DNA of 64,000 bases, taken from a bacterium (lineage in GTDB: Bacteria > Patescibacteriota > Dojkabacteria > SC72). The stretch's first letter is position 1. Each line of letters begins with the position of its first letter. This document shows positions 2,943-56,389 of this stretch, in pieces. The DNA lies in the NCBI GenBank assembly GCA_021108295.1, contig JAIORF010000102.1, positions 110,027 to 174,026 of the forward strand, in the 5' to 3' direction. The position numbers and the translations under genes were made by a program. The notes beneath the pieces were generated by a model, which was not told the origin of the DNA, made no database searches, and saw only the letters and a program-made list of their open reading frames with translations.

Positions 2943-3753
2943 TATTGTTACTCAGAACACAGGAGAGGATAGTGTAAAGAGGTTAAAAATTATACTTCTT
3001 TCTTTTGTTTTGTCATTTTCCCTATTTTTTACTAAGATATTTGCTCAGGAATCTTCGTTACTCATGATCTATGTAGTAGGGGGTATATATTTCTTTGTCT
3101 CTGTGATTGGCTTATTGTGGGCTTTTAATTATAAGGTGAAGATTAGATCTTTAATTTATATCTTGCAGGGAGGTTTGTTTGTGTTTAGTGAGGTTCTTTT
3201 TGTGTTGGTGTTTTTCTTCCAGCAGTTTGATCGTATATATGAAGGTGTTTTGCTTTTCATTCTACTCTGTTTTATTTGGGTGATTACCTATGTTTGTTTC
3301 TTGATGGTAAATGTTTTTAATGTTGCTTTGTATAAGAGTTTGCCTTTGTTGCAGGTTGCTCAGACTGCTTCGTACATCCTTTCTTTGTTGATGATTTATT
3401 TCTTTACATTTTCTATTCTTACTAGTGGTTTCCCTTTGTATGTGATGTTTCCATTATTATTCATATTATATTTGTTTATATTGTTTATGCAGTTTAACGA
3501 ATTGGATATGGAGAAGGGTATTATATGGCGTAGGGTGATTTTGCTTTCGTTGATTAATATGTTTACAATTATCCCGTTTATATTTATAGGTTCAACTCAT
3601 GAGATTGTCGCTATAGTACCGACAGTAGGGGGTTTTGTTGGTGGTGGGCTGCTAAATCTTAGTGGGCAAAAGGATGTTAAGTGGCAGGTGTTTGGTTACA
3701 ATGTGATATTGCTAATTGCCATTGTTCTTGCAGTTTATTTTTGTTGGTTCTAA
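2935..3753 (+). CDS. Hypothetical polytopic membrane protein
   Basis: 272 aa with about 8 hydrophobic helices rich in F/L/I; overlaps ruvB stop by 8 nt. Confidence 0.5.
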   Translation: MDNIVTQNTGEDSVKRLKIILLSFVLSFSLFFTKIFAQESSLLMIYVVGGIYFFVSVIGLLWAFNYKVKIRSLIYILQGGLFVFSEVLFVLVFFFQQFDRIYEGVLLFILLCFIWVITYVCFLMVNVFNVALYKSLPLLQVAQTASYILSLLMIYFFTFSILTSGFPLYVMFPLLFILYLFILFMQFNELDMEKGIIWRRVILLSLINMFTIIPFIFIGSTHEIVAIVPTVGGFVGGGLLNLSGQKDVKWQVFGYNVILLIAIVLAVYFCWF

Positions 3754-4750: not shown

Positions 4751-6415
4751 TTAATTTAAACTTAAGGTATCAAAAACTGTCCGAGCAGCAACTTCTGGTG
4801 ATACTCCATTAGATACAACATTCCACAGGTTTTGAGTAAATACATTACCTGCTTGTTGACCTTGTAGCATAGCTTGGTCAACACCGAGGTTTTGTAGAGC
4901 TTCTACAAAGGTTTTCTGTAAAGCTCCATGACTTCCTCCAATATTTCCCATTGCAAGATCTTTGCCTTGCCATCCAAGGCTACTTGGTTCCCATCCATAG
5001 TCAGAGGCTTTTAACCATTGTCCTTCAAAGAGATTTGTAGGGGTAGTAGGTGATTCTATAATTGGTGGTTGTGAGACTTCAGTTAGAGGTGTTTCAGGAG
5101 TTAAATTTGGTCTTTCTGGTGGTGTTGGATCTATATTAGATGTAGTTTCGAGCATATTAAAAATGTTTTTTATGGCAGAGCCGATACCGTATCCAGTTGC
5201 TCCACCAATTAATACTGCAGAGGTCTCCCCTAGTCTATCGGACCACCATTTTCTTCTTTCAATTTGTTTGTTGAGTTGTTCTAGCTGTTCTGTGGTCATA
5301 TTTCTTCTGTCTGTGAGGTTTATATCCTTTGTTTTGGTTCTAATTCTTTCTTCCATGTGTTTTAGGTTTTTCCCTGCAAAGCGTCCACCGATTGTAATTC
5401 CTATGACTGCAGCTATTGATAGGGGTGGTGTGGCAATGGCGACTCCACCTGCAGTGACTCCTGCAACTATTTTGATAATCTTTTCTTTTCGTGTTCTCTT
5501 TTGTTGAGATTCTTGTTCTTTTTGATTGAGTGTTGTTTGGAGATTTTCTCTTTCTAGGAGGAGGTTTAAGTAATGGAGTTTCTCACTGTCAGGTATGGTT
5601 CTTTCATCGTTATATTCACGGAGGGCTGTTTTAGCTTCTAGTGCTTCAATAGATTGGTTTAGTTCAACTAATCTCTGAGTGTCTGTTGGTATTGGTTTTT
5701 CTTCAGGTTGAGTTGTAGGAGTTACTATCTTTTGAGGTTCTGGTGTGGTTGGTGTAGGAGTTACATTGTTTTCGTCTTTAAGAGTTTTGAGTTCTTCCCG
5801 AATCTTTCCTCTTCTATTCTCAATTGCTCTTAACTCAGCTTTTAATTCTATTTCTTTTGGTGTTTCTGTTTGCACAGGAGGTTTTGCTTTTGCTTCTGTG
5901 TCATTGTCTGTGATGCTTTTAAAGCGATCAATTGGTGGTCTCGTATTTGCAGGTACCCAAGCACTTTGGCTTTCTGGTGTTGGGCCTGGCCCCATTATCT
6001 TTGGAGGGTTTCCATCACTTGATGGAATGGTTGGTGTAGGAGGAGCTGTTGGAGTTGTGTTGTCACGAGCTGCAATCCTTTCCAGAGCTATTGCTTTGCG
6101 AGCTTGAAGTTCTTCTGATAGAGCTTGTTTTTGTTTTGGTGTTAGTAATTGCTTATCTGTAGTTTCTGTGATTGGAATATCTGTTGGTTGAGTAGTAGTT
6201 GTAGGAATGACTTCTCGAAATGGTTTGACTTCATCTTCTGGCTTTGGTTGTGGAGTATGTGGAGTATGGTCTCCCCAGCCTTTTTTAATATGTTGAGGTA
6301 TAGCACTGTAGTCTCCTGTTATATTTCCTTCAGCAGGTGGGTTATCAGTAACAGATGGAGGGGTACTTAAGGGGGCTTCCTGTGGCATACCGCTTTGTAA
6401 ATTATCAGTGTTCAT
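4751..6415 (-). CDS. Pro/Thr-rich membrane protein with coiled-coil segments and Gly-zipper-like transmembrane helices
   Basis: 554 aa. Long PT-rich low-complexity N-terminal region with coiled-coil heptads, two Gly-rich hydrophobic segments (IVAGVTAGGVAIATPPLSIAAVIGITIGG; SAVLIGGATGYGIGSAI) and a ~150-aa C-terminal domain. Confidence 0.5.
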   Translation of the reverse strand: MNTDNLQSGMPQEAPLSTPPSVTDNPPAEGNITGDYSAIPQHIKKGWGDHTPHTPQPKPEDEVKPFREVIPTTTTQPTDIPITETTDKQLLTPKQKQALSEELQARKAIALERIAARDNTTPTAPPTPTIPSSDGNPPKIMGPGPTPESQSAWVPANTRPPIDRFKSITDNDTEAKAKPPVQTETPKEIELKAELRAIENRRGKIREELKTLKDENNVTPTPTTPEPQKIVTPTTQPEEKPIPTDTQRLVELNQSIEALEAKTALREYNDERTIPDSEKLHYLNLLLERENLQTTLNQKEQESQQKRTRKEKIIKIVAGVTAGGVAIATPPLSIAAVIGITIGGRFAGKNLKHMEERIRTKTKDINLTDRRNMTTEQLEQLNKQIERRKWWSDRLGETSAVLIGGATGYGIGSAIKNIFNMLETTSNIDPTPPERPNLTPETPLTEVSQPPIIESPTTPTNLFEGQWLKASDYGWEPSSLGWQGKDLAMGNIGGSHGALQKTFVEALQNLGVDQAMLQGQQAGNVFTQNLWNVVSNGVSPEVAARTVFDTLSLN

Positions 6416-6488: not shown

Positions 6489-9400
6489 GTGTGTATTTTT
6501 GTTAAAATGTTCATACATATGAAGCAATTTCTTAAAAAGAACTGGGGTAAGATATTATTAGCTACAATATTAGTTGTAATTTTAAGCCTATCCTTCAAAG
6601 TAGGATATTCATATATATCTAATGATAACTATTCTCCCGATCTCAATCCATTGTTAACTATTGAGAGAAGTATAATCTCTCCTGCATGGAGAAGTTATAG
6701 AGGACTTGGTTTTGCATCTGAAAGTGAACAAACAGATGTATTTAGATCTGTCTTTTACTATGTCACAGACATATTTCTACCTACATGGTCTCTTAGTCAG
6801 ATATTTGCCCTACTCTGTTTTGGTGTAGGGAGTTGGTTTACTGGTTTACTTGCATCTAATCTTGTTAGGGATTTTAGTAAAGAGAAATATTCAGAGTTAG
6901 CATTTTTACTTAGTGGGATCTTTTACATTACAACTCTCTGGACTGTATGGGTGTACTATTTAAATATGTTTCCATATATTTCACAGTTTGGGTTTCTACC
7001 GTTGCTAGTATGGAGTATTTATAGGTTGGTTAAAGATTTTAATTGGAAGAATGCATTAATTACGTTCTTTTGCAGTATTGTATTTACTTCTACATGTGTA
7101 ATTGCAACTTTGTTTGTAGTAGATGTTGTGGTTATATTTTTTCTTACATTAACTTTTGCTATATTTCATACAAAAGGTCTTAAAGAAATATTTAAGAAAG
7201 TATTTCTTACAATGTTATTGTTTGTATGTACACAATTGTTTTGGATATTGCCTTTTGTACACTATACAGTGAATGTAAGTGGAGATATTGTGGATTCTTA
7301 TGTTAACAGGAGTATTACTACTAGTGTTATTGATTTGGAACATGAAGCTTTAGATTCAATCGACTCTGCTCGAATGTATACGAGGATATTGGAAACTACA
7401 GATGATATGGTGGGAGAGAAGTATCTTTTCCCTGATGCTGAGGAGTATATGGTGTATGACTTCTATAAGTTTGTGGCATTAATCCCTGCGATATTGGGGG
7501 TCATAGGGATAGTATTCTCGATTGTAAAGAAAAGGTGGAAACTCTTACTACTTAGTATTCTTACAGTTGGTTCATGGTTTATCATAAAGAATCTTAATCA
7601 ACCTCTAGGGGAGACATATAGTCTTTTGCAAGAGTATGTCCCGTTATTCAAACAGGTATTTAGATGGCCTTCTTCGAAGATTGGGCAGATATATGTCTTC
7701 TCCTTATCACTAATTGCTCCGTTTGGTTTTGTGTATCTACTGGAATTCTTAACTTCTGTTTTGAAAAGGAAGGTATTAAAAGTTTCTCTTTGGGTAGTTT
7801 CAACACTGATGTTAATAACAATGCTTCTTTACTTCTCATCATATATGTTTGTAGGAGACCTTTTTGTAGAAAGATCAATTGTAGTCATTCCTGAAGAATA
7901 TTATCACTTAGAGCAATATCTAAATGAAAATGATAATAAAGGGAGGATCTTGTATCTTCCGACTGCAAATAGTAGTTACTTTAGGGAGTATGATTGGGGT
8001 TTTATTGGGTCTGGCTTTCTCCACTATATAGTTCCTAACCCTTTGATAGATATGTCTTTGGCAATTGGATCTAATGCTGGAGAAGAAGCGATGCGACAAT
8101 TAAAAGACTTCGAACTATCGCACGATGTAGAAAGTCTTGAAAGATTTCTTGAACAATATGATACGAAATATGTACTGATAGATAGAAACCTTGTAAAGGG
8201 TAGATACGGGCATGAATTAGATTGGACAATATCGAATATTCTTGCAGAAAGGTTAGATCTTGTTTGGAATGACTCAGATATATATCTTTATAAAACAGCA
8301 AAAGTGGAGGAAAGATTAACAGAATCTATGTCTCCTGAACTTAATACATTTACTAGAGAGGTTACTGTGTCCCCTACCCTTACACCTCTTAATATGCAGA
8401 TTAAGAATTGGAAGATAGAAGAGAATGAAATAGTTGGAACCTTTATACACGAAGGTCAAAATGTCTATCAATTACTAACAAATGGCGATATTGATATTTA
8501 CTCTTTACCGAGTAGTCTTGTATTGGAAGATAATCACATAATTGTTAAACCAGCTATACCTACTATAAACGATATCTCAACAGGTATTAGTAAAACCTTT
8601 GATAATGTCGACTATGATTACTATATGGTTGGAGAAAAAGTTTTTACAAAGAGTCAACTAGAAATAGGAGTTTCGGTGGACATACAATATACGGAATTAA
8701 TACAAATATATGGTGTTAGAGAAGGCGATTGGAATACAGATAATATGACCTCACATATTGCTTCAAATGGTAAAGCAGGAAATTGTTCTGGGACAGAGTT
8801 TGAAGAAGATATCTCTATACAGTTACAAGGACAGGCTTCAGGGTTCTCTGTTTCAGGTGATTCTGAACTTCCGTGTATATATTCTAGTATAGATTTGTTT
8901 GAAAGTGGTGTAGCCAAGATAGAACTTAATTGGGAAAATATTACAGAAAACACATATGTTGGATACTGTTTGTACTCTCAGCAATATGAGAAATGTGTAA
9001 ACGAAGAGAAATATATATATTCAGAGGATCAACTAGGACAAGAAGAGATCCTACTTCCATACAGGTTAAATAAAAGTGATGATTTGACACTTACAATATA
9101 TGTTTACTCTCCTACGCTAGATGATGTAGAAACAATATTTAGAAATATACAGATTAGTATTCTCTCAAATCTCGAAAGGATTTCAGTCTCTTCATATAAG
9201 GAGACCTTATACAAAGCAGGTATTCTCTTGGAGAATACCAAGGAGTACACATTGAGTATTCCTGTGATATATGGAGATAGTAGTTACATATACTTTTCCT
9301 CTACGAAAGAGAATATGATATGGAAGATGAATGATGCTCAAGACGGTGGGGAACTTAAGGTAGAATGGAATAATGGAATAAGTCAGACTGTACAGGGACA

Positions 9401-10064
9401 GTATTTAAATCAATATACTACCCTTTTCAATACTAAGGGTTTGGATAGATATCTTTGGTATTGGTCTGGACAAAATATTAGTAATATTCCATCTACACTC
9501 TGTTTAACTTATGCGAGTGATGACAAGTGTTGGGTAGAGGATATGTTTTTTGATAATGAAAAGGGTTCTAACTTAAACTTCTTTAGGAGTATTGGTAATA
9601 AGAGATTAGATCTTTCATACAGAAGTGTGAGCTACGAGCAACTTTCACAAAACAAATTAGAGAACTTTGTAGTTATGAAATATCCAAGTGAATGGGAAGA
9701 TATTAAGTTTGTCCCTGAATCAAGTACAAGATTTGTAGAGTATGAAATGGATAGTGGAGGTTCGCAGAGTACAATATATTCTCTTCCAGAGCAGTTGCCT
9801 ACTAATTCTTTAATCACAATTCCACAATCATCTAGTAGTGGTTGGTTAGCAATTTCCTTTGGTAACAATATCCCTCATATCTTGAAAGATAGGGTTGTTG
9901 TAAATGGTTGGAAGCAGGGTTGGGATATATCTAATACTGATTACAACAATATATGGGTAATATACTATCCTAACCTTCTTGCATATCTTGGGTATACAAT
10001 ATTGGTTACAGAGTTTTTTGTAATACTTTTTAACTTAGTAAAGAGAAGAAATGGAAAAGAGTAA
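6489..10064 (+). CDS. Giant polytopic membrane protein, candidate GT-C-type glycosyltransferase (YfhO/GtrC/ArnT-like) with a large extracytoplasmic C-terminal domain
   Basis: 1191 aa. About 12-14 TM helices in the first ~460 aa, then a ~730-aa soluble domain. Stop overlaps the downstream GT2 gene by 14 nt; a second GT2 lies nearby. Family assignment is inference. Confidence 0.5.
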   Translation: MCIFVKMFIHMKQFLKKNWGKILLATILVVILSLSFKVGYSYISNDNYSPDLNPLLTIERSIISPAWRSYRGLGFASESEQTDVFRSVFYYVTDIFLPTWSLSQIFALLCFGVGSWFTGLLASNLVRDFSKEKYSELAFLLSGIFYITTLWTVWVYYLNMFPYISQFGFLPLLVWSIYRLVKDFNWKNALITFFCSIVFTSTCVIATLFVVDVVVIFFLTLTFAIFHTKGLKEIFKKVFLTMLLFVCTQLFWILPFVHYTVNVSGDIVDSYVNRSITTSVIDLEHEALDSIDSARMYTRILETTDDMVGEKYLFPDAEEYMVYDFYKFVALIPAILGVIGIVFSIVKKRWKLLLLSILTVGSWFIIKNLNQPLGETYSLLQEYVPLFKQVFRWPSSKIGQIYVFSLSLIAPFGFVYLLEFLTSVLKRKVLKVSLWVVSTLMLITMLLYFSSYMFVGDLFVERSIVVIPEEYYHLEQYLNENDNKGRILYLPTANSSYFREYDWGFIGSGFLHYIVPNPLIDMSLAIGSNAGEEAMRQLKDFELSHDVESLERFLEQYDTKYVLIDRNLVKGRYGHELDWTISNILAERLDLVWNDSDIYLYKTAKVEERLTESMSPELNTFTREVTVSPTLTPLNMQIKNWKIEENEIVGTFIHEGQNVYQLLTNGDIDIYSLPSSLVLEDNHIIVKPAIPTINDISTGISKTFDNVDYDYYMVGEKVFTKSQLEIGVSVDIQYTELIQIYGVREGDWNTDNMTSHIASNGKAGNCSGTEFEEDISIQLQGQASGFSVSGDSELPCIYSSIDLFESGVAKIELNWENITENTYVGYCLYSQQYEKCVNEEKYIYSEDQLGQEEILLPYRLNKSDDLTLTIYVYSPTLDDVETIFRNIQISILSNLERISVSSYKETLYKAGILLENTKEYTLSIPVIYGDSSYIYFSSTKENMIWKMNDAQDGGELKVEWNNGISQTVQGQYLNQYTTLFNTKGLDRYLWYWSGQNISNIPSTLCLTYASDDKCWVEDMFFDNEKGSNLNFFRSIGNKRLDLSYRSVSYEQLSQNKLENFVVMKYPSEWEDIKFVPESSTRFVEYEMDSGGSQSTIYSLPEQLPTNSLITIPQSSSSGWLAISFGNNIPHILKDRVVVNGWKQGWDISNTDYNNIWVIYYPNLLAYLGYTILVTEFFVILFNLVKRRNGKE

Positions 10065-10887
10065 ACCTTTGGTATCAATAGTTATACCTGTACATAATGG
10101 AGAGAAGTTTTTAAGGGAGGCAATAGAGAGTTGTCTTAATCAGGACCACCCTACTCTAGAGATAGTGGTAGTAGATGATAAGTCTACGGATAGTACATTA
10201 GAAATATTAAGGGAGTATGAGAGTAAGGATGAAAGAATTAGAGTTCTTTCTGTAGAGAAGCAGAATGGTTTGGGTAATGTAATAAATATAGGTATTAGAG
10301 CTTCTAAGGGTAAGTATATAGCTCGTATGGATGCAGATGATATTATGTATCCTTCTCGTATATCTAAGCAGGTAGAGTATCTAGAAAACAATCCTAGATG
10401 TGTAGCAGTGGGTGGTCAGATAGATATCATAGATGGGGAGGGTAAGATTACGGGTAAGAGAGAGTATGCGATAGAGGATAGGGATATAAAGAAGAATATG
10501 TTTCTTTTTCAACCTTTTGCACATCCTGCAGTTATGTTAAGAAGAGATGCTGTAGAGAGTGTTGGTTTGTATCCAGAGGATATGTGGAAGGTAGAGGATG
10601 TTAAGTTCTTTTTCTTACTTAGTCAGGAGGGAGAGTTTCATAATCTCTCAGATACTGTTTTGAAATATCGTATGACTTTTAATACAGAGAGTCAGGGTAA
10701 GATGGTAGATCATTTTAGAAAGACTCATGAGATGAGGAAATGGGTTGTAGAGAATTTAGATATTAGGCCTACTTTTAGGGAGAGGGTTATATGGTTTTTA
10801 CAAAGAGGGATTGTTTTTTTTATTAGTTTTCTTCCTCCAAAATTGTTTATGAGGGTGTATGAGTTTGGTAGGTGGGTTATTAAGTAA
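10051..10887 (+). CDS. Family 2 glycosyltransferase (GT-A fold)
   Basis: VSIVIPVHNGEKFLREAIESCLNQ, DDKSTD and ARMDADD (DxD) motifs typical of GT2. Confidence 0.85.
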   Translation: MEKSKPLVSIVIPVHNGEKFLREAIESCLNQDHPTLEIVVVDDKSTDSTLEILREYESKDERIRVLSVEKQNGLGNVINIGIRASKGKYIARMDADDIMYPSRISKQVEYLENNPRCVAVGGQIDIIDGEGKITGKREYAIEDRDIKKNMFLFQPFAHPAVMLRRDAVESVGLYPEDMWKVEDVKFFFLLSQEGEFHNLSDTVLKYRMTFNTESQGKMVDHFRKTHEMRKWVVENLDIRPTFRERVIWFLQRGIVFFISFLPPKLFMRVYEFGRWVIK

Positions 10888-10888
10888 A

Positions 10889-10914
10889 AAAGAGATATCT
10901 TTCGATATCTCTTT
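10889..10914 (+). terminator. Rho-independent terminator hairpin after the GT2 gene
   Basis: AAAGAGATATC-TTTC-GATATCTCTTT perfect hairpin 2 nt after the stop, followed by a T-rich tract. Confidence 0.5.
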
Positions 10915-11068
10915 GTACATTATTTTCTTTTTTTAGTCTTTCGTCCTTAAGGACTCATCAGTAAGACAAATATAGTCTTAGAGACTCTAGCGTGTGGTGA
11001 TTTTTTGTGTTTTTACACACTAGGGTCTGTGAAAAAGTGGGGTAGCTTTGGTTAGTTGCTGGGTAGCA

Positions 11069-11644
11069 TTATTGATTTAAAAACCAAAGCTGGAAGCCCG
11101 CGGAGTCGTTGTCTGCTTGATAGGAAACTGTTATAACTTGATCCGCATAGATCATAGTTTCTTGTTGCGGATCCTCTCCATAGTTTCCTAAGTCCCATTC
11201 AACGTTGTCGACGAAAAGTTCACCTGCCGAGTTGTTGATCCATCCGTCTAGGGGCATGGTAAAGGAAATCGTTCCACCGTCGCGTTTCAGGTCTGCAAGA
11301 TTCTTGCTACCTGCGCGAACGAGGTTTCCATTCCACCAGCCGAGGGTGTCCATCTCCCTGTTGCTATCAAACACAATCGTGTATTCGCCGTACTCATCAA
11401 AATCAACAGAGTTTGTGATTTTATTAAGAACGGCAACGGATGTGTTTTCAGGCTGTCTGGGATTAGGAGTCGTTGCCACAGGGGCTACTTCAGGAACCGG
11501 CTGTGTAGCAATCGCTTCCGCAAAACGGTCGCGATCAGTCTTGAAGTCAATTGATGGCCAGGGTTTCCCCAGGAGCATCCAAATCATCAAGACAGTTAGT
11601 ACTATCAGTGTAACATTTTTTGTAATAACCCAAAAGTTTTTCAT
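11069..11644 (-). CDS. Hypothetical exported or membrane-anchored protein, compositionally atypical (about 48% GC)
   Basis: 191 aa. N-terminal hydrophobic anchor (TLIVLTVLMIWMLL), PT-rich linker. Local GC counted at ~45-51% against a ~36% background; uses GCG, CGA, ACG codons that are rare elsewhere in the window. Confidence 0.55.
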   Translation of the reverse strand: MKNFWVITKNVTLIVLTVLMIWMLLGKPWPSIDFKTDRDRFAEAIATQPVPEVAPVATTPNPRQPENTSVAVLNKITNSVDFDEYGEYTIVFDSNREMDTLGWWNGNLVRAGSKNLADLKRDGGTISFTMPLDGWINNSAGELFVDNVEWDLGNYGEDPQQETMIYADQVITVSYQADNDSAGFQLWFLNQ

Positions 11645-11986
11645 TTTTATCTCTCCTCATATAAGAATATATTTTTATTGTTGATATATTGCTACCCATT
11701 CAAACAACTAACACATAGTTAATTATCTAAATGGGTAACAAATATCTAATATGTCTTTTAAGGAGATATTTCACCACACGCTATTTTATCTAAATATATA
11801 AAGATATAAATCTATGTATATATATTTAGAAATTATTAAAGTTCTGAGTTCATAAGAACTCATGTATAAAGACTTACTATCTCTACGAATGAATACTTAT
11901 GGATGTTTATTGGGAAAATATGTTAAAGTGCAGTATTAACTATCTATTATATTATACTATAGGTTTGTGCCTGGTGTCAATCTCCC

Positions 11987-12745
11987 CTACTTTGAAAGAA
12001 CTAACCTATATACCCTCTTAGTAAAGAAAACCTTATCTCGAAGAGATAATCGTAATATATCTTTTAACATACCAACCTCGGCTCTAATGTTTGTAGAAGT
12101 ACTATCACTCCTATTCTTATTCAAAAAGAAAGGTGTAACCTCTACCTTAGCATTAAGCTTCCCAATCTCATTTAAGATATCGCTATCTATTGCAAAATCA
12201 TTTACTGAAAGAACAGGTAAGATACTTTTTATTAAATCTTTTTTGAAAAGCTTAAGACCACAACCAATATCAGTAACCTCTTTAGGAAGTTTTAGGAATA
12301 ATCTGTTTAATTCTACTAAAGCATTAGAAAGAATTAATCTTTCTAAAGATAGCTCTACATTAGAATTATTGTGAACCTTAGAAGGTATTACTGCTGAAAT
12401 ATTATCTTTCTTGATAGCTTTGATAGCGTAACCAAGTGTTCTTATGGCAATATCTGTATCTGCGTCTATAAAGCCAATTATATCTCCAGTAGCCCTCTTC
12501 ATACCATATCTAACAGCATATCCCTTACCTTTATTCTCTTTATATCCAAGAACAGTTACTTTCTTTAGTCTGTTCTTCTTAATATATTTCTCCAATATCT
12601 CCTTAGTACTATCAATATATCCATCTATGACAAAGATTAACTCAAAGTCTGAGTTCTTTCTTGTAAGATATCCATACAGTCTTTCTAACTGATCTAATAC
12701 CTCTCTTTCTTTTTTGTATGTTGGTATTACTAAAGATATTTTCAT
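11987..12745 (-). CDS. GT2 polyprenyl-phosphate glycosyltransferase (DPM1/GtrB/CsbB-like)
   Basis: MKISLVIPTYKKE, FVIDGYIDST and GFIDADTD motifs; ~250 aa size typical of dolichol-P/undecaprenyl-P sugar synthases. Confidence 0.8.
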   Translation of the reverse strand: MKISLVIPTYKKEREVLDQLERLYGYLTRKNSDFELIFVIDGYIDSTKEILEKYIKKNRLKKVTVLGYKENKGKGYAVRYGMKRATGDIIGFIDADTDIAIRTLGYAIKAIKKDNISAVIPSKVHNNSNVELSLERLILSNALVELNRLFLKLPKEVTDIGCGLKLFKKDLIKSILPVLSVNDFAIDSDILNEIGKLNAKVEVTPFFLNKNRSDSTSTNIRAEVGMLKDILRLSLRDKVFFTKRVYRLVLSK

Positions 12746-12779: not shown

Positions 12780-13010
12780 CTACTTAGAGAGCTTTTCTTT
12801 TAAGGTTTTTGCTGTGCTTAATGTTGCTAATCCTAGTACAAAGAGTACCATTGCACTAATGTAGAAGATGCTTGTATTCTCAAGACCTGTTTGAATAGGT
12901 TTGTGAGGTGTATATGGTGTATAAACACTATATGCATCAGCAAGTACCATATCTGCATTTAAAGTGAAGATTGTAGCAACTAAAAGAGCGGATTTAATTA
13001 GTTTTTTCAT
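12780..13010 (-). CDS. Small secreted protein with a sorting-signal-like C-terminus (candidate minimal sortase substrate)
   Basis: 76 aa. Signal peptide MKKLIKSALLVATIFTLNADMVLA, ~25-aa mature part, then KPIQTG + hydrophobic helix + KTLKEKLSK tail. Lies directly downstream of the sortase gene on the same strand. Confidence 0.4.
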   Translation of the reverse strand: MKKLIKSALLVATIFTLNADMVLADAYSVYTPYTPHKPIQTGLENTSIFYISAMVLFVLGLATLSTAKTLKEKLSK

Positions 13011-13089
13011 CTTATTGATAATAAAATTAGATGAACAGTGAGATTATATCACTTAAGACCTCTTTTGTATACACTATGGGGTTGGTAAG

Positions 13090-13731
13090 CTACTCTACTC
13101 TATTTGCGTATCTAAATATTCTTTGAGTAGAATTGAAGTATTTACAGGTGTAAAGAATGAGATCTGCATCATAAGTTTTGATGAAAGTAGATTCATCCTC
13201 TGCAAATATTTCGTATTCATACTCTCTTTGTTCCCAGATAATTATTACACTATCCCCTATTCTAGTTTTTGGTAGATTAAAGAAGGAAAGAGTATTTCTA
13301 GTTGTAATATCCCAATATACATATCCAAATCTATGTGCAGCTAATATTGTTGGTAAGCTTCTGTCCTCAGGATTGCCATAATCCGAAGCCATCCAAGTAC
13401 CATTTCTTAAACTTGTCTCAGGATCATTGCTTTCCCCTATAGGGGAAAATACTTCTATGCGAGAGATGACGAGATGAGGCTCTTGTGGTAGTGATGCATT
13501 GAAATCTGGTAATACATTGTCTTTTTCATTTACCTCCACAGGCACTATTGGTTCCTCATAGATTTCCTCTTTGATATTATCTATCTCTGTGTCTGTAAGA
13601 TCAGGGTTGAGTCTGTAGAGAATGTATGGGGATACGGGGATCGCTATTAATATAAAAGCTAAGGCTAGGAATGAGAATCCCAATATTACATATATGTTAG
13701 ATAACTTCTTGATAAATATGTTCTTCTTCAT
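13090..13731 (-). CDS. Sortase family transpeptidase
   Basis: N-terminal TM anchor; catalytic His in LAAHR, catalytic Cys in LILYTC (TLxTC motif), conserved Arg in QRIFR. Confidence 0.7.
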   Translation of the reverse strand: MKKNIFIKKLSNIYVILGFSFLALAFILIAIPVSPYILYRLNPDLTDTEIDNIKEEIYEEPIVPVEVNEKDNVLPDFNASLPQEPHLVISRIEVFSPIGESNDPETSLRNGTWMASDYGNPEDRSLPTILAAHRFGYVYWDITTRNTLSFFNLPKTRIGDSVIIIWEQREYEYEIFAEDESTFIKTYDADLILYTCKYFNSTQRIFRYANRVE

Positions 13732-13748
13732 ACTTCTATCCTATCATA

Positions 13749-14555
13749 TTAATTCTTACTTCTTAAATATGTCTCTAGTATCATTCCACTACTCTTTTGC
13801 TCTAATGCATTACTCTTACCAATATATCTGTAATGCCAACTCTCGTAACTATACCCTGTTGTACTCTCGTATCCTTGAGGGTATCCAATTACAAAGCCAT
13901 AGAGATATGCATTCTCTACCAACCATCTACTAGCTTCGGTATTACCAAACTGACTACCTAGTGAATCACCTATTTCGTTTGAACTAAAATCTAGTGTAGT
14001 ACCTAACTGATGTTGACTATGACCTGCTCTAGCAGACACCTTGTCTGTACAAGATATGCAGTTGTTGTAGTAAGAAATCCAGTAGTTGTATGTACTCTCT
14101 TGGGTAGCATATGATCTGTATGCACTAACTACGCTTAAATCAATATCATCACTCTTAGAAGCATCAACTAGGTCTCTCAGATCATCAATGATGATACTTC
14201 TTAGGTAGTAATTCTCCCCTCTTCTAATACCACTGTTACTAGCCTTAACTAAATCATTGGGTTTGTATGTACTAGGTAATTGATACTTTTTGTTTACTAA
14301 AACTAACAGATCGTTACCATCTCTACTACACGCTACAATATCGCTTGGATATTCCCACCAGTTACCACTGGTAGAGGGAACAACAACCTCTTCAGGGTTT
14401 ATTTCCTCAGTACCTTTTTCTTCAACATCTATCACTTCATTTATCACAATCTTATTGTTGTCATCTATCTCCTCATCTTGTGGCAACTCTATGGTATTAA
14501 AGAGAGTTAAGATGGAGATGAGGAAGGATGTAATTAGGTTTAATATTTTGAACAT
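13749..14555 (-). CDS. D-alanyl-D-alanine carboxypeptidase, M15B/VanY family
   Basis: Signal/anchor N-terminus; SAYRSYATQ, HSQHQLGTTLDF (SxHxxGxAxD) and ESWHYRY (ExxH) zinc-peptidase motifs. Confidence 0.8.
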   Translation of the reverse strand: MFKILNLITSFLISILTLFNTIELPQDEEIDDNNKIVINEVIDVEEKGTEEINPEEVVVPSTSGNWWEYPSDIVACSRDGNDLLVLVNKKYQLPSTYKPNDLVKASNSGIRRGENYYLRSIIIDDLRDLVDASKSDDIDLSVVSAYRSYATQESTYNYWISYYNNCISCTDKVSARAGHSQHQLGTTLDFSSNEIGDSLGSQFGNTEASRWLVENAYLYGFVIGYPQGYESTTGYSYESWHYRYIGKSNALEQKSSGMILETYLRSKN

Positions 14556-14759: not shown

Positions 14760-14963
14760 ATGAATTTAAACAAGAGAGATATGAGAACAATAGAAGATCA
14801 GATAGAAGAATTGTCAAGTAAGATGATTAAGATGGAATTTAAGGTAACTCAAATTGATGAAGAGAAGGAATTTGATTATCAAAAAGTATTAGCTACGATT
14901 AAATATCTTTATAAATATTATGATGATATGAATAAGGATCGGTCTATTAAGATTACATCATAG
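14760..14963 (+). CDS. Small hypothetical coiled-coil protein
   Basis: 67-aa charged ORF, convergent with gyrA and overlapping its stop by 11 nt; weak support. Confidence 0.3.
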
Positions 14964-17685
14964 CTACTGTAGCTACCTTGTCGTTTTTATCAACATTCAT
15001 AATTTTTACTCCACTAGTTTGTCTCCCCTGTGTAGGTACTGCTTTAAGGAAAGATCTTATCACTTTTGATTTCTCAGAGATAATCACTAATTCTGACTCT
15101 CTTGGATTATCCAATATTCTTGCAGCTACTACATCGCCAGTTTTAGGAGTAACCTTGAATGTGAATATACCACTACCTGCTCTCTTTTGACTACCGTATT
15201 CCTTAAGCTCTGTCATCTTAGCAAATCCTTTCTGTGAGATAGTGAGTAATCTAAACTCTTCGCTTTTGATTATGCCCATACCTACTATATGGTCAGTTTT
15301 AGATTTAAACTTCATAGCAGTTACACCTTTAGCTGTTCTACCCATGGCTCGGACGTCAGATTCTTTAAATCTGATAGATTTACCCTCTGAAGTGATTAAG
15401 ATTACATCATTGTCTCCTGTAGTAGGTTTTACCCATGTTAGTTTATCACCGTCTGCAAGTGTAAGTGCAATGAGACCGTTTGTTCTAATATTGCTAAATT
15501 CTGAGATCTTAGTTTTTTTGATAACGCCGTTCTTTGTTACCATTGTAAAGAATTTGTTCTTCTTCTTATCGTCCCCATCTTTACCTTCCCCTACTCCACC
15601 TTTAGGATCTCTTGTTACAAATGAAGTGATTAGATCGTTTTGGTCCAGTGAAATGAGATTTACCAAAGGTAATCCCTTGGCAGTCCTGCCATATTCTGGA
15701 ATTTCAAATACCCTAAGTGTGTATACCTTCCCTTTATTGCTAAAGAGCATTAACTCATCAAGTGTGTTACAAAGTATTGCATGTTTTACGAAATCGCCTT
15801 CCTTGTTGTTTCCTCCTCTGACTCCCTTCCCACCTCTCTTCTGAGATCTGTATGAATCGGGATCAACCCTTTTGATATATCCAGAGTTTGTGATTGTCAC
15901 GAGGGTGTCTTCAGAAGCTACCATGTCCTCTTCGTTGATTTCTCCTATCTTCCCTTTGACAACTTTGGATTTTCTTTCGTCACCGAATTTTTCTTTGATA
16001 AGTTGTAGGTCTGTATCTACGACTTCAAGTATTTTATCTTCACTTTCAAGTATTGCATTATATTCTTTAATTTTCTTCTCAAGATCTTTGTATTCATTTT
16101 GCAATTTAAGTTTCTCAAGTGCAGCTAATCGTCTAAGTTGCATATCAAGTATGGCTTGTGCCTGTACTTCTGTAAATTTGAACTTGTCGATAAGGTTAGT
16201 TTTTGCACTATCTTGTGTCTTGGATTGACGGATAGTGGCTATAATCTCGTCGAGTACATCTAGAGCTTTGAGTAAGCCTTCTAGAATATGTCCTCGATAT
16301 CTTGACTCTGCAAGATTATACTCATATCTTCTAATGGTTATCGTAATTCTGAAAGAGAGGAATAGTTCTAGCATTCTCTTTAAAGAGAGAGTCTTTGGTT
16401 CGTTCTTAACGAGTGCAATCATATTTGCATTGAACGCTTTCTGCATCTCGGTATATTTATACAGTTTGTTGAGTACAGCCTTCGGTTGTGCATCTCTTTT
16501 GAGTATGACGACAACTCGAATACCATCTTTATTGGATTCATCCCTTATATCAGCGATACCTTCGATCCTTTTATCCTTAACCAAGTCAGCGATTTTTTCA
16601 ATCATATGGGCTTTGTTAACTTGGTAAGGGATTTCTGTAATGATTATATGGAATCTATTCTTATCGCCTTCGATGATACTAGCTTTTGCTCTTTGTAAAA
16701 TTCTACCTCTTCCTGTAGCGTAAGCATTGAGTATCTCTTTTTGGTCGTATATTGTTCCACCGGTTGGGAAATCGGGTCCGGGAATTATCTCAATTAGTTC
16801 AGTAGGATTAATTTCTGATTTGAAATCTGGGTATACCACTTCATCTGTATCTTTCAACCTTTTTTCTATAGCTTGTATATCTTCACTAAAGTCTATCTGT
16901 TTTGTGTCTACATAGTTTTCAAAGTAGTGCTCTGGTTTTGAATTAAGCGTTTGTGGAGTAGTTTCTTCTGCCTCTTTGGATTTCCTCAGTTCATTGTAAA
17001 TAGCTTTACCTTTCCATCTGTTTTTTCTCTTTATCATTTCCTGCAATGCGTCGATGAGTTCTGTGAGATTGTGAGGAGGGATTTGTGTAGCCATACCTAC
17101 GGCAATACCTTGCGAACCGTTGGATAGCAGGTTTGGAAAGAGTGCTGGTAATACGGTTGGTTCAAGTCTTGTACCATCGTAGTTAACATTGTATGTGACA
17201 GTACCTTTATTTAAGTCTTTGAGAAGTTCGGGAGCTATTTTGGAGAGTTTTGCTTCTGTGTATCTCATTGCAGCTGGAGGATCGCCATCAATAGAGCCGA
17301 AGTTCCCTTGTCCATGTACTAGTGTGTATCTCATGGAGAATGGTTGTGCCAGTTTTACCATTGTTGGGTAAACTACTCCCTCACCGTGAGGATGGTAGTT
17401 CCCAGAGGTGTCTCCTGCGATCTTTGCAGATTTCCTAAAGTGGGCACTTGGCATTAAGCCTAGGTCGTTCATTGCTACTAAGATTCTTCTTTGTGAAGGT
17501 TTGAGGCCATCTCTGACTTCTGGGAGTGCACGAGAGACGATGACAGACATAGAGTAATCTATGAAGTTGGACTTCATTTCATCTACAATGCTTCTTGGAG
17601 CAATATCTCCTGGTTTGAATGTAGCATTGAAGTCTGTATCCCCATTATCTTCTACCGTCGTTGTGTTTTTTATTTCTTCTGGCAT
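14953..17685 (-). CDS. gyrA: DNA gyrase subunit A
   Basis: [17 protein letters not shown], active-site region [10 protein letters not shown], GyrA-box-like C-terminal repeats; ~50-aa extra segment between TELIDAL and GPDFPTGG. Confidence 0.95.
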
Positions 17686-17694
17686 AAATATTTA

Positions 17695-19626
<1,932 letters not shown>

Positions 19627-54647: not shown

Positions 54648-55358
54648 CTACGTTTTTTGGTACAATTTGTCCAGTTTCCCAATTACAACAAGTCTTTGGT
54701 GGGATGTCCAAAGAGGAGTACATGTAATTAGGGTTACTCTGTAATCAGAACTGTCTTGGATTACAGAAATGTCATTTTTCTCTACAATCTTAACTTCAGA
54801 TACAATGTAGTTGTACTCATTACCATCTTGATTGAAGAAAAGAGTATCCCCTTTCCTTACCTTGTCTAAGTTAAAGAAGGTGTCCTTTGCAGGAGGAATA
54901 AAGAGGTATCTATGGGAGATTATTACTACATTCCCTTTCTGTCCAGGATATTTAGAGGTTGGAAAGTGCCAGAAGCCTTTGTCTAATATGTTTGAATCGC
55001 TACCTTGGAAGATGTCTCCCTCTACATCTATAGACTCTATTTTAAGTGTTGTGTTTAATTCTTCCAAGATCAAATCTATATCCCCTACTTCATCGAGATA
55101 TTCTTCAATGCTTGTGTCTTCTACTAAGATTTGAGAATTACCCAAGATTTGTTCCTTTGTAGGAGCTACTGTTGTAAGTAGTGAAAAGTACATGTCGTAT
55201 GTATATCTTTTTATATCTATTCTCTTAAAAGTACCAATGAGTGTGTTGTAGTTTGGGAGGATTAGAAGGTATGAAATTGGTACGAAAAGTAGTAGCAAAA
55301 GAATTATTGTTATGAGATATCGGTAAATTTGTTTTATCATAGTAAGGTATTCTATCAA
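54648..55358 (-). CDS. Sortase family transpeptidase
   Basis: N-terminal TM anchor, catalytic His in VVIISHRY, catalytic Cys in VTLITCTP (TLxTC), Arg in QRLVV. Confidence 0.8.
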   Translation of the reverse strand: MIEYLTMIKQIYRYLITIILLLLLFVPISYLLILPNYNTLIGTFKRIDIKRYTYDMYFSLLTTVAPTKEQILGNSQILVEDTSIEEYLDEVGDIDLILEELNTTLKIESIDVEGDIFQGSDSNILDKGFWHFPTSKYPGQKGNVVIISHRYLFIPPAKDTFFNLDKVRKGDTLFFNQDGNEYNYIVSEVKIVEKNDISVIQDSSDYRVTLITCTPLWTSHQRLVVIGKLDKLYQKT

Positions 55359-55432: not shown

Positions 55433-56389
55433 ATGGCTAAAAAGAAATCTACCAAAAAAGGTAATAATAGTGTGAATAAAGAAACAGGTAAAAGTATGAA
55501 GCAGAAGGTGCAGCTTATAGCTGCAAGTGGTAATGACAAAGCTTCAAGGATTGTAGGTACCATATTTATCGGTCTGGGTGTACTTCTTGTTGCTTTCGGT
55601 GTGTACTCATTCATTCAATTTAGATCAGATCCAGTATTTGAAGAAACTTTTGTCACTCCATCATTGGAATATGTAACGGAATTGACTAATGGTAGTGAGG
55701 TAATGGTTAAGGGTGAGGCTCTAGATTACGATAGTATTGCAATATTTGTTAATGATGAGAAGATAGATGAGGTTAAGGTTGTTGATGGTATATTTGAATA
55801 TACATATGAGGTTGAGGATGAGGGAGAGTTTGCAATATCAGTAGCAGGACTTAAAGGTTTTCCAATTAGGAAGATTAGTGTTAGAAGTGTAGAGTTTGTT
55901 GCAATTGTAGACAAGAGTGCTCCTAGTAGTGAAGAGGTAGAGCTTGTGTATGGTGGTGAGACTAACAGAGATTCTTTTAGGATGACTGGTAATGTAGAAC
56001 CTAATTCTACAGTTGAAATTAAGAGGGGTGTAGAGGTATATACTTCACTTGCAGATGGAGAGGGATATTTTGAAATATTAGATATTGTACTCGATGCTGG
56101 TAAGAATGTTTTCAGCATATCAGTTACTGATAGTGCTGGTAATATGACTACATTGGATGAGAAAGTAAGGGTTGAATATTCAGTTGATGGTAGTGTAAAT
56201 GGGAATGCAGTAGCAGATCAATACACAGAGGACAGTGGTAGGGCTGTAGCAGGTACTGGGGACACAATTCCACAGGCTGCAGGAGAGTTAGATATTCGAT
56301 TAGCAAGAACTTTGATGTTAGTTTTCGGATTAGCAGCTATCTTTGTATTTAGTGGTAGTTCTGTGTATGCTTTTTCGAAGAGAGAGTAA
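55433..56389 (+). CDS. Ig-like-domain surface protein with C-terminal sorting-signal-like tripartite tail
   Basis: N-terminal signal-anchor, Big-like beta domains, C-terminus ...TGDTIPQAAGE + TM helix + SKRE; divergent from the sortase gene. Confidence 0.5.
   Translation: MAKKKSTKKGNNSVNKETGKSMKQKVQLIAASGNDKASRIVGTIFIGLGVLLVAFGVYSFIQFRSDPVFEETFVTPSLEYVTELTNGSEVMVKGEALDYDSIAIFVNDEKIDEVKVVDGIFEYTYEVEDEGEFAISVAGLKGFPIRKISVRSVEFVAIVDKSAPSSEEVELVYGGETNRDSFRMTGNVEPNSTVEIKRGVEVYTSLADGEGYFEILDIVLDAGKNVFSISVTDSAGNMTTLDEKVRVEYSVDGSVNGNAVADQYTEDSGRAVAGTGDTIPQAAGELDIRLARTLMLVFGLAAIFVFSGSSVYAFSKRE

Follow-up and report, generated by a model that had tools for sequence, protein, structure and literature searches.

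A dedicated one-sortase/one-substrate pair with a non-LPXTG motif is known from the class B sortase SrtB and its substrate IsdC (NPQTN). Short secreted proteins can also be sortase cargo: the long chaplins ChpA-C of actinomycetes are displayed on the wall by class E sortases that read LAXTG, and they are abundant structural surface components with many paralogues and a folded, amyloid-forming domain of about 40 residues. Sortase classes are reviewed in PMC8225981, and chaplins and class E sortases are treated in two further papers (PMC5148588, PMC13251363). Another kind of small sortase partner is SafA of Actinobacteria, a 52-aa protein encoded directly after srtA, which shields SrtA from signal peptidase; it has a single transmembrane (TM) helix in N-in/C-out orientation and an exoplasmic FPW motif, and it is not a substrate (PMC9282373). 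In the Candidate Phyla Radiation (CPR), Méheust et al. found a sortase family in more than half of the genomes, near-ubiquitous in Microgenomates (PMC6744442), and in the open-access literature we found no report of CPR sortase substrates, of a small sortase partner or of the small-protein family described below. Here, we analyse a sortase gene and the tiny open reading frame (ORF) behind it in a stretch of 64,000 nt ("the window"; contig JAIORF010000102.1, positions 110,027 to 174,026) from an uncultured member of the Candidatus Dojkabacteria (WS6; Patescibacteriota). Its nearest counterparts appear to be the dedicated pairs with variant motifs such as SrtB-IsdC in function, and srtA-safA in gene layout.

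An original prediction, made from the sequence alone, had described a sortase followed on the same strand by a tiny ORF, and both are present on the minus strand:

13731..13090, minus strand: sortase-like ORF, 213 aa (ORF, homologues, fold)
13010..12780, minus strand: small ORF, 76 aa, stop codon included in the span (ORF, homologues)

The sortase and small-ORF proteins are identical to NCBI K8R14_03410 and K8R14_03405, encoded on a contig of 472 kb, and their near relatives are labelled Dojkabacteria. On balance, we favour the reading that the 76-aa protein is a dedicated substrate of the adjacent sortase and that its short Tyr/Pro-rich peptide is transferred to peptidoglycan. We prefer it because the protein combines a signal peptide with a tripartite C-terminus whose module is conserved while the cargo varies ten-fold in length, and because its gene stays linked to a single sortase clade through rearrangements and over deep divergence, paralogues exist, and the promoter of the small gene suggests a product made in excess over the enzyme. 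A dedicated tiny substrate with a non-LPXTG tripartite signal was also the core of the original prediction, and linkage and conservation make it the best-supported part; three of its details fared less well and are taken up where they arise.

Homologues, fold and catalytic triad identify the larger protein as a sortase. Residues 2-41 form a membrane helix at its N-terminus; then come a low-confidence linker and a catalytic domain at about residues 86-211, which AlphaFold2 (pLDDT 87) modelled as a beta-barrel behind the long helix and flexible linker. Foldseek against the PDB placed sortases A, C and E at the top (probability 1.00, TM-score (target) 0.5-0.72, about 20% identity). This fold search was needed because a sequence profile run against PDB chains gave nothing significant, with spurious SYK kinase matches on top. 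The triad consists of His133 (ILAAHRFGY), Cys196 (LILYTCK) and Arg204/Arg207 (RIFRYANR), all invariant in an alignment of 34 homologues with 44-77% identity. Most of the 377 homologues, including one at 77% identity, carry PF04203 in precomputed annotation; the window sortase itself has no Pfam Sortase match at E<=0.01, and its sole NCBIfam match is the class D model (E 0.003, 17 bits). TIGR01076 was matched by 26 of the 34 homologues (best E 1.4e-6), and none of the 34 reached the NCBIfam cut-offs for classes A-F or GN (140-166 bits; best E about 1e-5 to 1e-6). Relatives in two distant lineages (L086, L087) gave nothing or E 0.009 against the class models. Since fold and catalytic residues fit and no class cut-off is reached, the enzyme belongs to a sortase clade outside every curated sortase class.

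The small protein reads MKKLIKSALLVATIFTLNADMVLA|DAYSVYTPYTPHKPIQT|GLENTS-IFYISAMVLFVLGLATLSTA-KTLKEKLSK and divides into the following parts:

13010..12939, minus strand: Sec-type signal peptide, residues 1-24 (n-region MKKLIK, h-region SALLVATIFTL, c-region NADMVLA)
12938..12888, minus strand: mature cargo DAYSVYTPYTPHKPIQT of predicted extent, residues 25-41, ending at the presumed cleavage-site Thr41
12905..12885, minus strand: motif HKPIQTG, residues 36-42, of the pattern H-x-P-[VI]-x-[TA]-G (counted by column in 204 family members)
12869..12783, minus strand: hydrophobic helix IFYISAMVLFVLGLATLSTA and basic tail KTLKEKLSK, residues 48-76 (sequence, model, family conservation)

The signal peptide was recognised by rule, from its n-, h- and c-regions with Ala at -1 and V/I/A at -3. 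In an alignment of 28 close homologues (A1), Ala24 (-1) is invariant and V22, L23 and D25 are each at least 90% conserved; Y30, P35, H36, P38, T41 and G42 are among the other invariant positions. The first hydrophobic stretch is only 11-14 residues long and has an A-x-A-type end, and by the -3/-1 rule signal peptidase would cut after VLA24 or after ADA26. From there to Thr41 are 15-17 residues, so that the mature segment of about 25 residues in the original prediction was too long. The motif sits five residues ahead of the C-terminal helix, whose 20 hydrophobic residues (48-67) lead into the tail (68-76). AlphaFold2 modelled a helix at 2-18, coil at 19-46 and a helix at 47-75 (pLDDT >90), with no folded cargo. 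All sequence features on which the original prediction had been built, namely LAAHR, LILYTC and a downstream Arg in the sortase and KPIQTG, the 20-residue hydrophobic helix and KTLKEKLSK in the small protein, are indeed there. Neither LPXTG nor a known variant pentapeptide is present in the motif, which has Pro at P4 and V/I at P3 and shares T-G alone; likewise, the LPXTG sorting-signal models (TIGR01167, PF00746) do not match the small protein of the window.

The small ORF is a real gene. Its 28 close homologues share 63-84% identity, and on shared contigs the small protein is at least as conserved as the sortase. An exhaustive HMMER profile search of 1.84 billion cluster representatives returned 179 at E<=0.001 (clusters defined at 50% identity); among the 150 matches listed, lengths ran from 49 to 172 aa, nearly all were aligned over most of their length, none had a Pfam or NCBIfam match, and no large protein with the module appeared. 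A word-indexed search with a diverse alignment gave only proteins of 71-108 aa. Of 204 family sequences compared column by column, 203 have Tyr33, 194 His36, 183 Pro38, 161 Val/Ile39, 156 Thr41 (plus 47 with Ala) and 166 Gly42 (Ala 16, Ser 9, Asp 7), and 196 have a hydrophobic residue at position 43. Most sequences continue with an acidic residue 2-3 positions past the Gly, then the helix of about 20 residues and a K/R tail. This C-terminal module is constant, and the cargo ahead of it varies from about 10 to about 100 residues: about 10-17 Tyr/Pro-rich residues in Dojkabacteria, 30-45 residues with a C-x3-YG-x4-C loop in other lineages, and about 100 Pro/Thr-rich residues in L079. Paralogues occur as well. 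In the distant lineage L086, one sortase is followed by two paralogous small genes (3462-3725 and 5001-5279), and the 172-aa protein P0193 contains two complete tandem modules, each with signal peptide, cargo, motif, helix and tail.

Some members depart from the motif. The Gly after the Thr is replaced by Asp or Ala in segments such as PVPTDFGD, PVKTDFVL and HVVVDTAVD (L054 5871-6125, L074 6760-6972, L079 6638-7177), residues that would make unusual sortase leaving groups, and in L058 and L059 the conserved His is replaced by Tyr.

The family was previously unannotated, with no Pfam or NCBIfam model: neither the small protein nor any of 26 relatives had a significant match in Pfam, NCBIfam or PHROGs. 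The best TIGR01167 score in the family was 13.3 bits against a cut-off of 15.9 (one member), and Gram_pos_anchor was matched by 3 of the 26 members (best E 0.022). The most frequent NCBIfam match, below threshold in 4 of the 26 members (best E 0.026) and mostly over the signal-peptide region, was NF053819, a 105-position model for EF2685/EF0750. These are likewise sortase substrates of only about 100 residues; however, they carry LPXTG, and there is no sign of homology to the small family. A pilin-like subunit, one of the products suggested by the original prediction, was rejected, as none of the cargo Lys residues is conserved, the cargo does not fold into a domain and the sortase reaches no class C cut-off. 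The sole cargo Lys, K37, is variable among the 204 sequences (E 43, K 36, T 36, I 29).

The gene neighbourhood links the small gene with the sortase gene. The pertinent genes all lie on the minus strand, in the order gyrB, gyrA, VanY, sortase, small ORF, GT2 and a hypothetical gene; those around the pair are:

19605..17695, minus strand: gyrB (ORF list)
17685..14953, minus strand: gyrA (ORF list)
14555..13749, minus strand: VanY/LdcB-like peptidoglycan carboxypeptidase with an N-terminal hydrophobic segment (Pfam VanY 1.1e-34)
12745..11987, minus strand: GT2 glycosyltransferase, polyprenyl-phosphate sugar transferase-like (Pfam Glycos_transf_2 1.5e-23)
11644..11069, minus strand: membrane-anchored hypothetical protein, 191 aa (ORF list)

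The VanY-like protein is also matched by the LdcB and VanXY models of NCBIfam, with scores under their cut-offs. We searched 80 species-level genome loci with the sortase family, together with other sources (86 in all), with the small-family profile. A family member adjoins this sortase family in 78 of the 86 sources, in 77 of them downstream on the same strand. Six of the eight misses have less than 1 kb of DNA past the sortase, and two of these (L013, L042) end just past the promoter box of the small gene. Typically, gyrA comes first, VanY and sortase come next with either of them leading, and the small gene and GT2 follow; VanY adjoins the sortase, on one side or the other, in most loci, and the small gene is followed by GT2 in about half of the sources. 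The linkage of the small gene persists through the swap of VanY and sortase and into distant lineages: it lies downstream of a sortase of the same clade in L082 and L084, is inverted and divergent to the sortase in L085, L087 and L113, and stays with the sortase in L086 and L087, where VanY is absent. In L113, a contig of about 1.5 kb, the sortase adjoining the distant family member is frameshifted; the L114 contig (about 1.5 kb) is too short to show gene context. Conservation of the small ORF in relatives, on which the original prediction had made itself depend, is borne out both by the close homologues and by this adjacency.

Three observations on these loci stand apart from the linkage itself. 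In L036 (402-1865), a single ORF of 487 aa holds a Sortase domain (102-217) and a VanY domain (335-465). The two may be naturally fused, or the assembly may have joined them by error; a real fusion would tie the carboxypeptidase functionally to the sortase. In the closest relative (L001/L002, 2545-3168), gyrA and VanY are separated by a gene for an AbiEii toxin domain (PF08843) and a small ORF upstream of it, an insertion that the window lacks. Furthermore, many of the metagenome-assembled genomes (MAGs) among L010-L084 are titled "uncultured Candidatus Saccharibacteria", "Pseudomonadales" or "Gammaproteobacteria" despite a Dojkabacteria-type locus, and these records are probably mislabelled or mis-binned.

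The neighbourhood also bears on the idea that the small ORF is functionally unrelated to the sortase, being a two-helix membrane protein such as a holin-like partner of VanY, or a generic membrane peptide that is syntenic by chance. A protein of 76 aa that has two hydrophobic segments, ends in a basic C-terminus and is encoded beside a peptidase of the M15/VanY type does superficially resemble a class II holin-endolysin pair, and VanY gives weak endolysin matches in PHROGs. The small protein, however, matches no holin or lysis family there, only weakly a family of unknown function; the locus is a housekeeping one beside gyrB-gyrA, syntenic across about 80 species and not a prophage; the short first hydrophobic stretch ends like a signal peptide, with A-x-A; and the small gene keeps with the sortase in the two lineages without VanY. 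We consider an unrelated protein highly improbable, and the holin/endolysin reading in particular was rejected on the PHROGs result and the synteny.

The original prediction took the sortase and the small ORF to be co-transcribed. They lie on the same strand, 79 bp apart, with no terminator-like site in the gap; co-transcription is nevertheless not established, as the small gene has a conserved promoter region of its own:

13071..13043, minus strand: promoter-like TATACA-17 nt-TGATATAAT (TG-extended TATAAT; site scan and comparison)
13079..13067, minus strand: CCATAGT(R)T box just upstream of the small-gene -35 (same box at most loci)

A single promoter-like match is weak by itself, for the scan gave fewer such sites than shuffled sequence. 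Comparison across loci is more telling: a TA[TA]AAT hexamer lies upstream of the ATG in 72 of 72 small genes, at -36 to -46 in about 68 of them, and is usually preceded by a TTGAC-like or TAGAC-like -35 element and the CCATAGT box. The element follows the small gene where VanY separates it from the sortase. The small gene thus has its own near-consensus and probably strong promoter, which makes co-transcription with the sortase possible but not required, and a separate promoter suggests a product needed in excess over the enzyme. In one clade (e.g., L004, 5003-5011), a second CCATAGT box with its own TATAAT stands just beyond the small gene and a hairpin, GGGGAGAtttaTCTCCCC. About 340 nt separate it from the next gene; they contain no convincing ORF and might represent a small RNA or a long leader.

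Set beside the described systems, the locus resembles SrtB/IsdC in having a specialised sortase next to its own candidate substrate, a non-LPXTG motif within a tripartite signal, an N-terminal membrane anchor on the enzyme and a His/Cys/Arg triad. It differs in that the enzyme stays below all class A-F and GN cut-offs, Pro stands at P4 of a motif H-x-P-[VI]-x-[TA]-G, the cargo has about 17 residues instead of a folded NEAT domain, a VanY-like gene is linked, and the host belongs to the Patescibacteria. With the chaplins it shares the prospect of short secreted proteins displayed by a sortase that reads a variant motif; in contrast to them, the cargo consists of 15-17 unstructured residues and the sortase is not of class E. 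The likeness to SafA lies in a very small membrane protein, encoded immediately downstream of the sortase and conserved throughout the lineage. What sets the window protein apart from SafA is its signal peptide, the T-G motif, the second hydrophobic segment, the basic tail at the C-terminus and the lack of FPW. Membership in the SafA family was rejected on topology and motif, and a SafA-like function persists as a rival.

In that rival, the small protein stays uncleaved and partners the sortase in the membrane: as an accessory factor or pseudo-substrate, it would regulate or stabilise the enzyme and bind it via its conserved ectodomain and TM helix. A small membrane protein right downstream of a sortase and conserved across the phylum is just the situation of SafA (PMC9282373); in addition, conservation covers the whole ectodomain and a Gly within the TM helix, the motif was found in no other protein, and P1' tolerates A, S and D. 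Such a partner is nevertheless hard to square with a topology and motif that differ from those of SafA and include a cleavable-looking signal peptide, a C-terminal anchor and a basic tail. Nor would it readily explain why cargo length varies about ten-fold while the module is constant, why some lineages have tandem paralogues, why the gene is driven by a strong promoter of its own instead of being co-expressed stoichiometrically, and why T or A followed by G stands at a fixed distance from the helix, which looks like a cleavage site. We therefore regard an uncleaved partner as unlikely.

For the dedicated substrate that we favour, the following sequence of events can be proposed. The small gene would be transcribed from its own strong promoter and the precursor exported by Sec, with signal peptidase I cutting after VLA24. 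The C-terminal helix and Lys-rich tail would hold the product in the membrane and offer the extended H-K-P-I-Q-T|G-L-E segment to the membrane-anchored sortase, whose Cys196 would cleave between Thr41 and Gly42. If the thioester were then resolved by the amine of a peptidoglycan precursor, the Tyr/Pro-rich DAYSVYTPYTPHKPIQT of about 17 residues would end up covalently on the cell wall, and the linked VanY/LdcB-like carboxypeptidase may work on the same stem peptides. Stem peptides are favoured as the acceptor because this extracytoplasmic carboxypeptidase is linked to the sortase and once fused to it.

The acceptor is the point at which another reading departs: the protein may be a sortase substrate that is not anchored to the wall, its peptide of 15-17 residues being released by hydrolysis as a signal or effector, joined head to tail, cyclised or polymerised via its own N-terminal amine, or moved to some other acceptor. 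All evidence for substrate status serves this reading equally. The cargo is too small for a conventional surface protein, its sequence is conserved as in a bioactive peptide (above all Tyr33 and His36), and many members carry the C-x3-YG-x4-C loop typical of secreted mini-peptides. The conserved linkage and the one fusion with a VanY/LdcB-like enzyme nevertheless point to stem peptides as the reactant, and no receptor, kinase or export gene is consistently linked. To our knowledge, no natural sortase-released signalling peptide has been described. Release or another fate of the peptide is thus a fairly doubtful alternative to its transfer to peptidoglycan.

Further, more ambiguous evidence for the substrate reading comes from the enzyme. 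The residues at +1 to +3 past the catalytic Cys, in the beta7-beta8 loop, track the P3 and P2 residues of the motif:

loop CRMYN with motif PEDTG
loop CKFFN with motif PLPTG
loop CKYYN with motif PIPTG
loop CKYFN with motif PI[QD]TG

In class A sortases this loop sets selectivity (PMC8361268). The co-variation is, however, confounded by phylogeny, with the same sortase columns co-varying with every motif position; mutual information between sortase columns and motif positions picked out the same clade-marker columns everywhere and was uninformative beyond the loop table. Several other points weigh against a wall-anchored substrate. Cleavage and anchoring are predictions from sequence. The motif is not LPXTG, its Pro being at P4 and not at P3, and no sorting-signal model reaches threshold. 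Gly at P1' is replaced by A, S or D in about 19% of the family, and Asp would be an unusual leaving group. The entire short ectodomain (Y-x-P-Y-x-P-H) is conserved, and a binding partner that is never cleaved would look alike. The module does not appear to be a general sorting signal because no large protein carries it, and a wall-bound peptide of 17 residues has no obvious function.

The window holds a second pair that helps to judge how restricted a sortase and its motif may be here:

55358..54648, minus strand: second sortase, 236 aa, closer to the canonical type (Pfam Sortase 93 bits; TIGR01076 cut-off exceeded)
55433..56389, plus strand: Ig-like surface protein, 318 aa, divergent to the second sortase (C-terminus TIPQAAGELD, helix, SKRE)

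The adjacency and a tail of [IL]P.[AS][AGS]G[ED], TM helix and K/R are kept in 18 metagenome loci, and the two genes are probably another dedicated sortase/substrate pair, with an LPxAG-like motif. A P-x-x-A-G register for the Ig-like tail was rejected: its orthologues show [IL]P.[AS][AGS]G, which is LPXTG-like, differs from the motif of the small family and goes with the second sortase. With one neighbouring substrate for each sortase and two motifs in the same genome, it becomes more natural to see the small-gene product as a substrate. The original prediction had proposed comparing the C-terminal tails of secreted proteins for a shared motif and had listed a pattern found in no other protein as an outcome counting against it. 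The exhaustive profile search did find the pattern confined to small proteins of a single family, and a scan of about 850 kb of Dojkabacteria DNA for proteins with both signal peptide and C-terminal anchor gave only the Ig-like protein at 55433-56389. We do not take the lack of further H-x-P-x-x-T-G tails as refuting a substrate, because dedicated one-sortase/one-substrate pairs are known and the second pair in the window follows the same local pattern.

The small gene is flanked by what looks like an envelope glycosylation cluster (window 6489-12745), with a multi-pass GT-C protein of 1191 aa (weak AftD-like match) and two GT2 enzymes. Both GT2 resemble polyprenyl-phosphate sugar transferases, with weak ArnC, PgfS and AglJ matches in NCBIfam; the one at 11987..12745 is that listed above, and its participation in the sortase/small-gene system is uncertain. 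The cluster could be an extracytoplasmic glycosylation route, and tying it to the Tyr/Thr-rich peptide is speculation.

With low confidence, we extend the substrate reading to a wider hypothesis: in Dojkabacteria and related Patescibacteria, the sortase and the VanY/LdcB-type carboxypeptidase may install a highly expressed, ribosomally made peptide of 15-45 residues on stem peptides, as a bulk modification of the wall. Such a "wall peptide" would, if the hypothesis is true, represent a hitherto undescribed class of cell-wall component. The polyprenyl-phosphate GT2 and GT-C enzymes encoded nearby might supply glycans for its conserved Tyr, Thr and His; or else cross-linking might use the free N-terminus of the peptide as an acceptor.

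The substrate reading is directly testable with one recombinant domain and one synthetic peptide, e.g., YTPHKPIQTGLEN or YTPYTPHKPIQTGLENTS, and a sortase of new specificity would be useful for sortase-mediated ligation. The analysis defines an unclassified sortase clade, an unannotated family of small proteins and a new candidate motif, H-x-P-[VI]-x-[TA]-G. Cleavage and attachment to the wall, should they be borne out, would make the peptide by far the smallest sortase cargo in nature and a first handle on the surface chemistry of these uncultured, probably episymbiotic, ultra-small bacteria.

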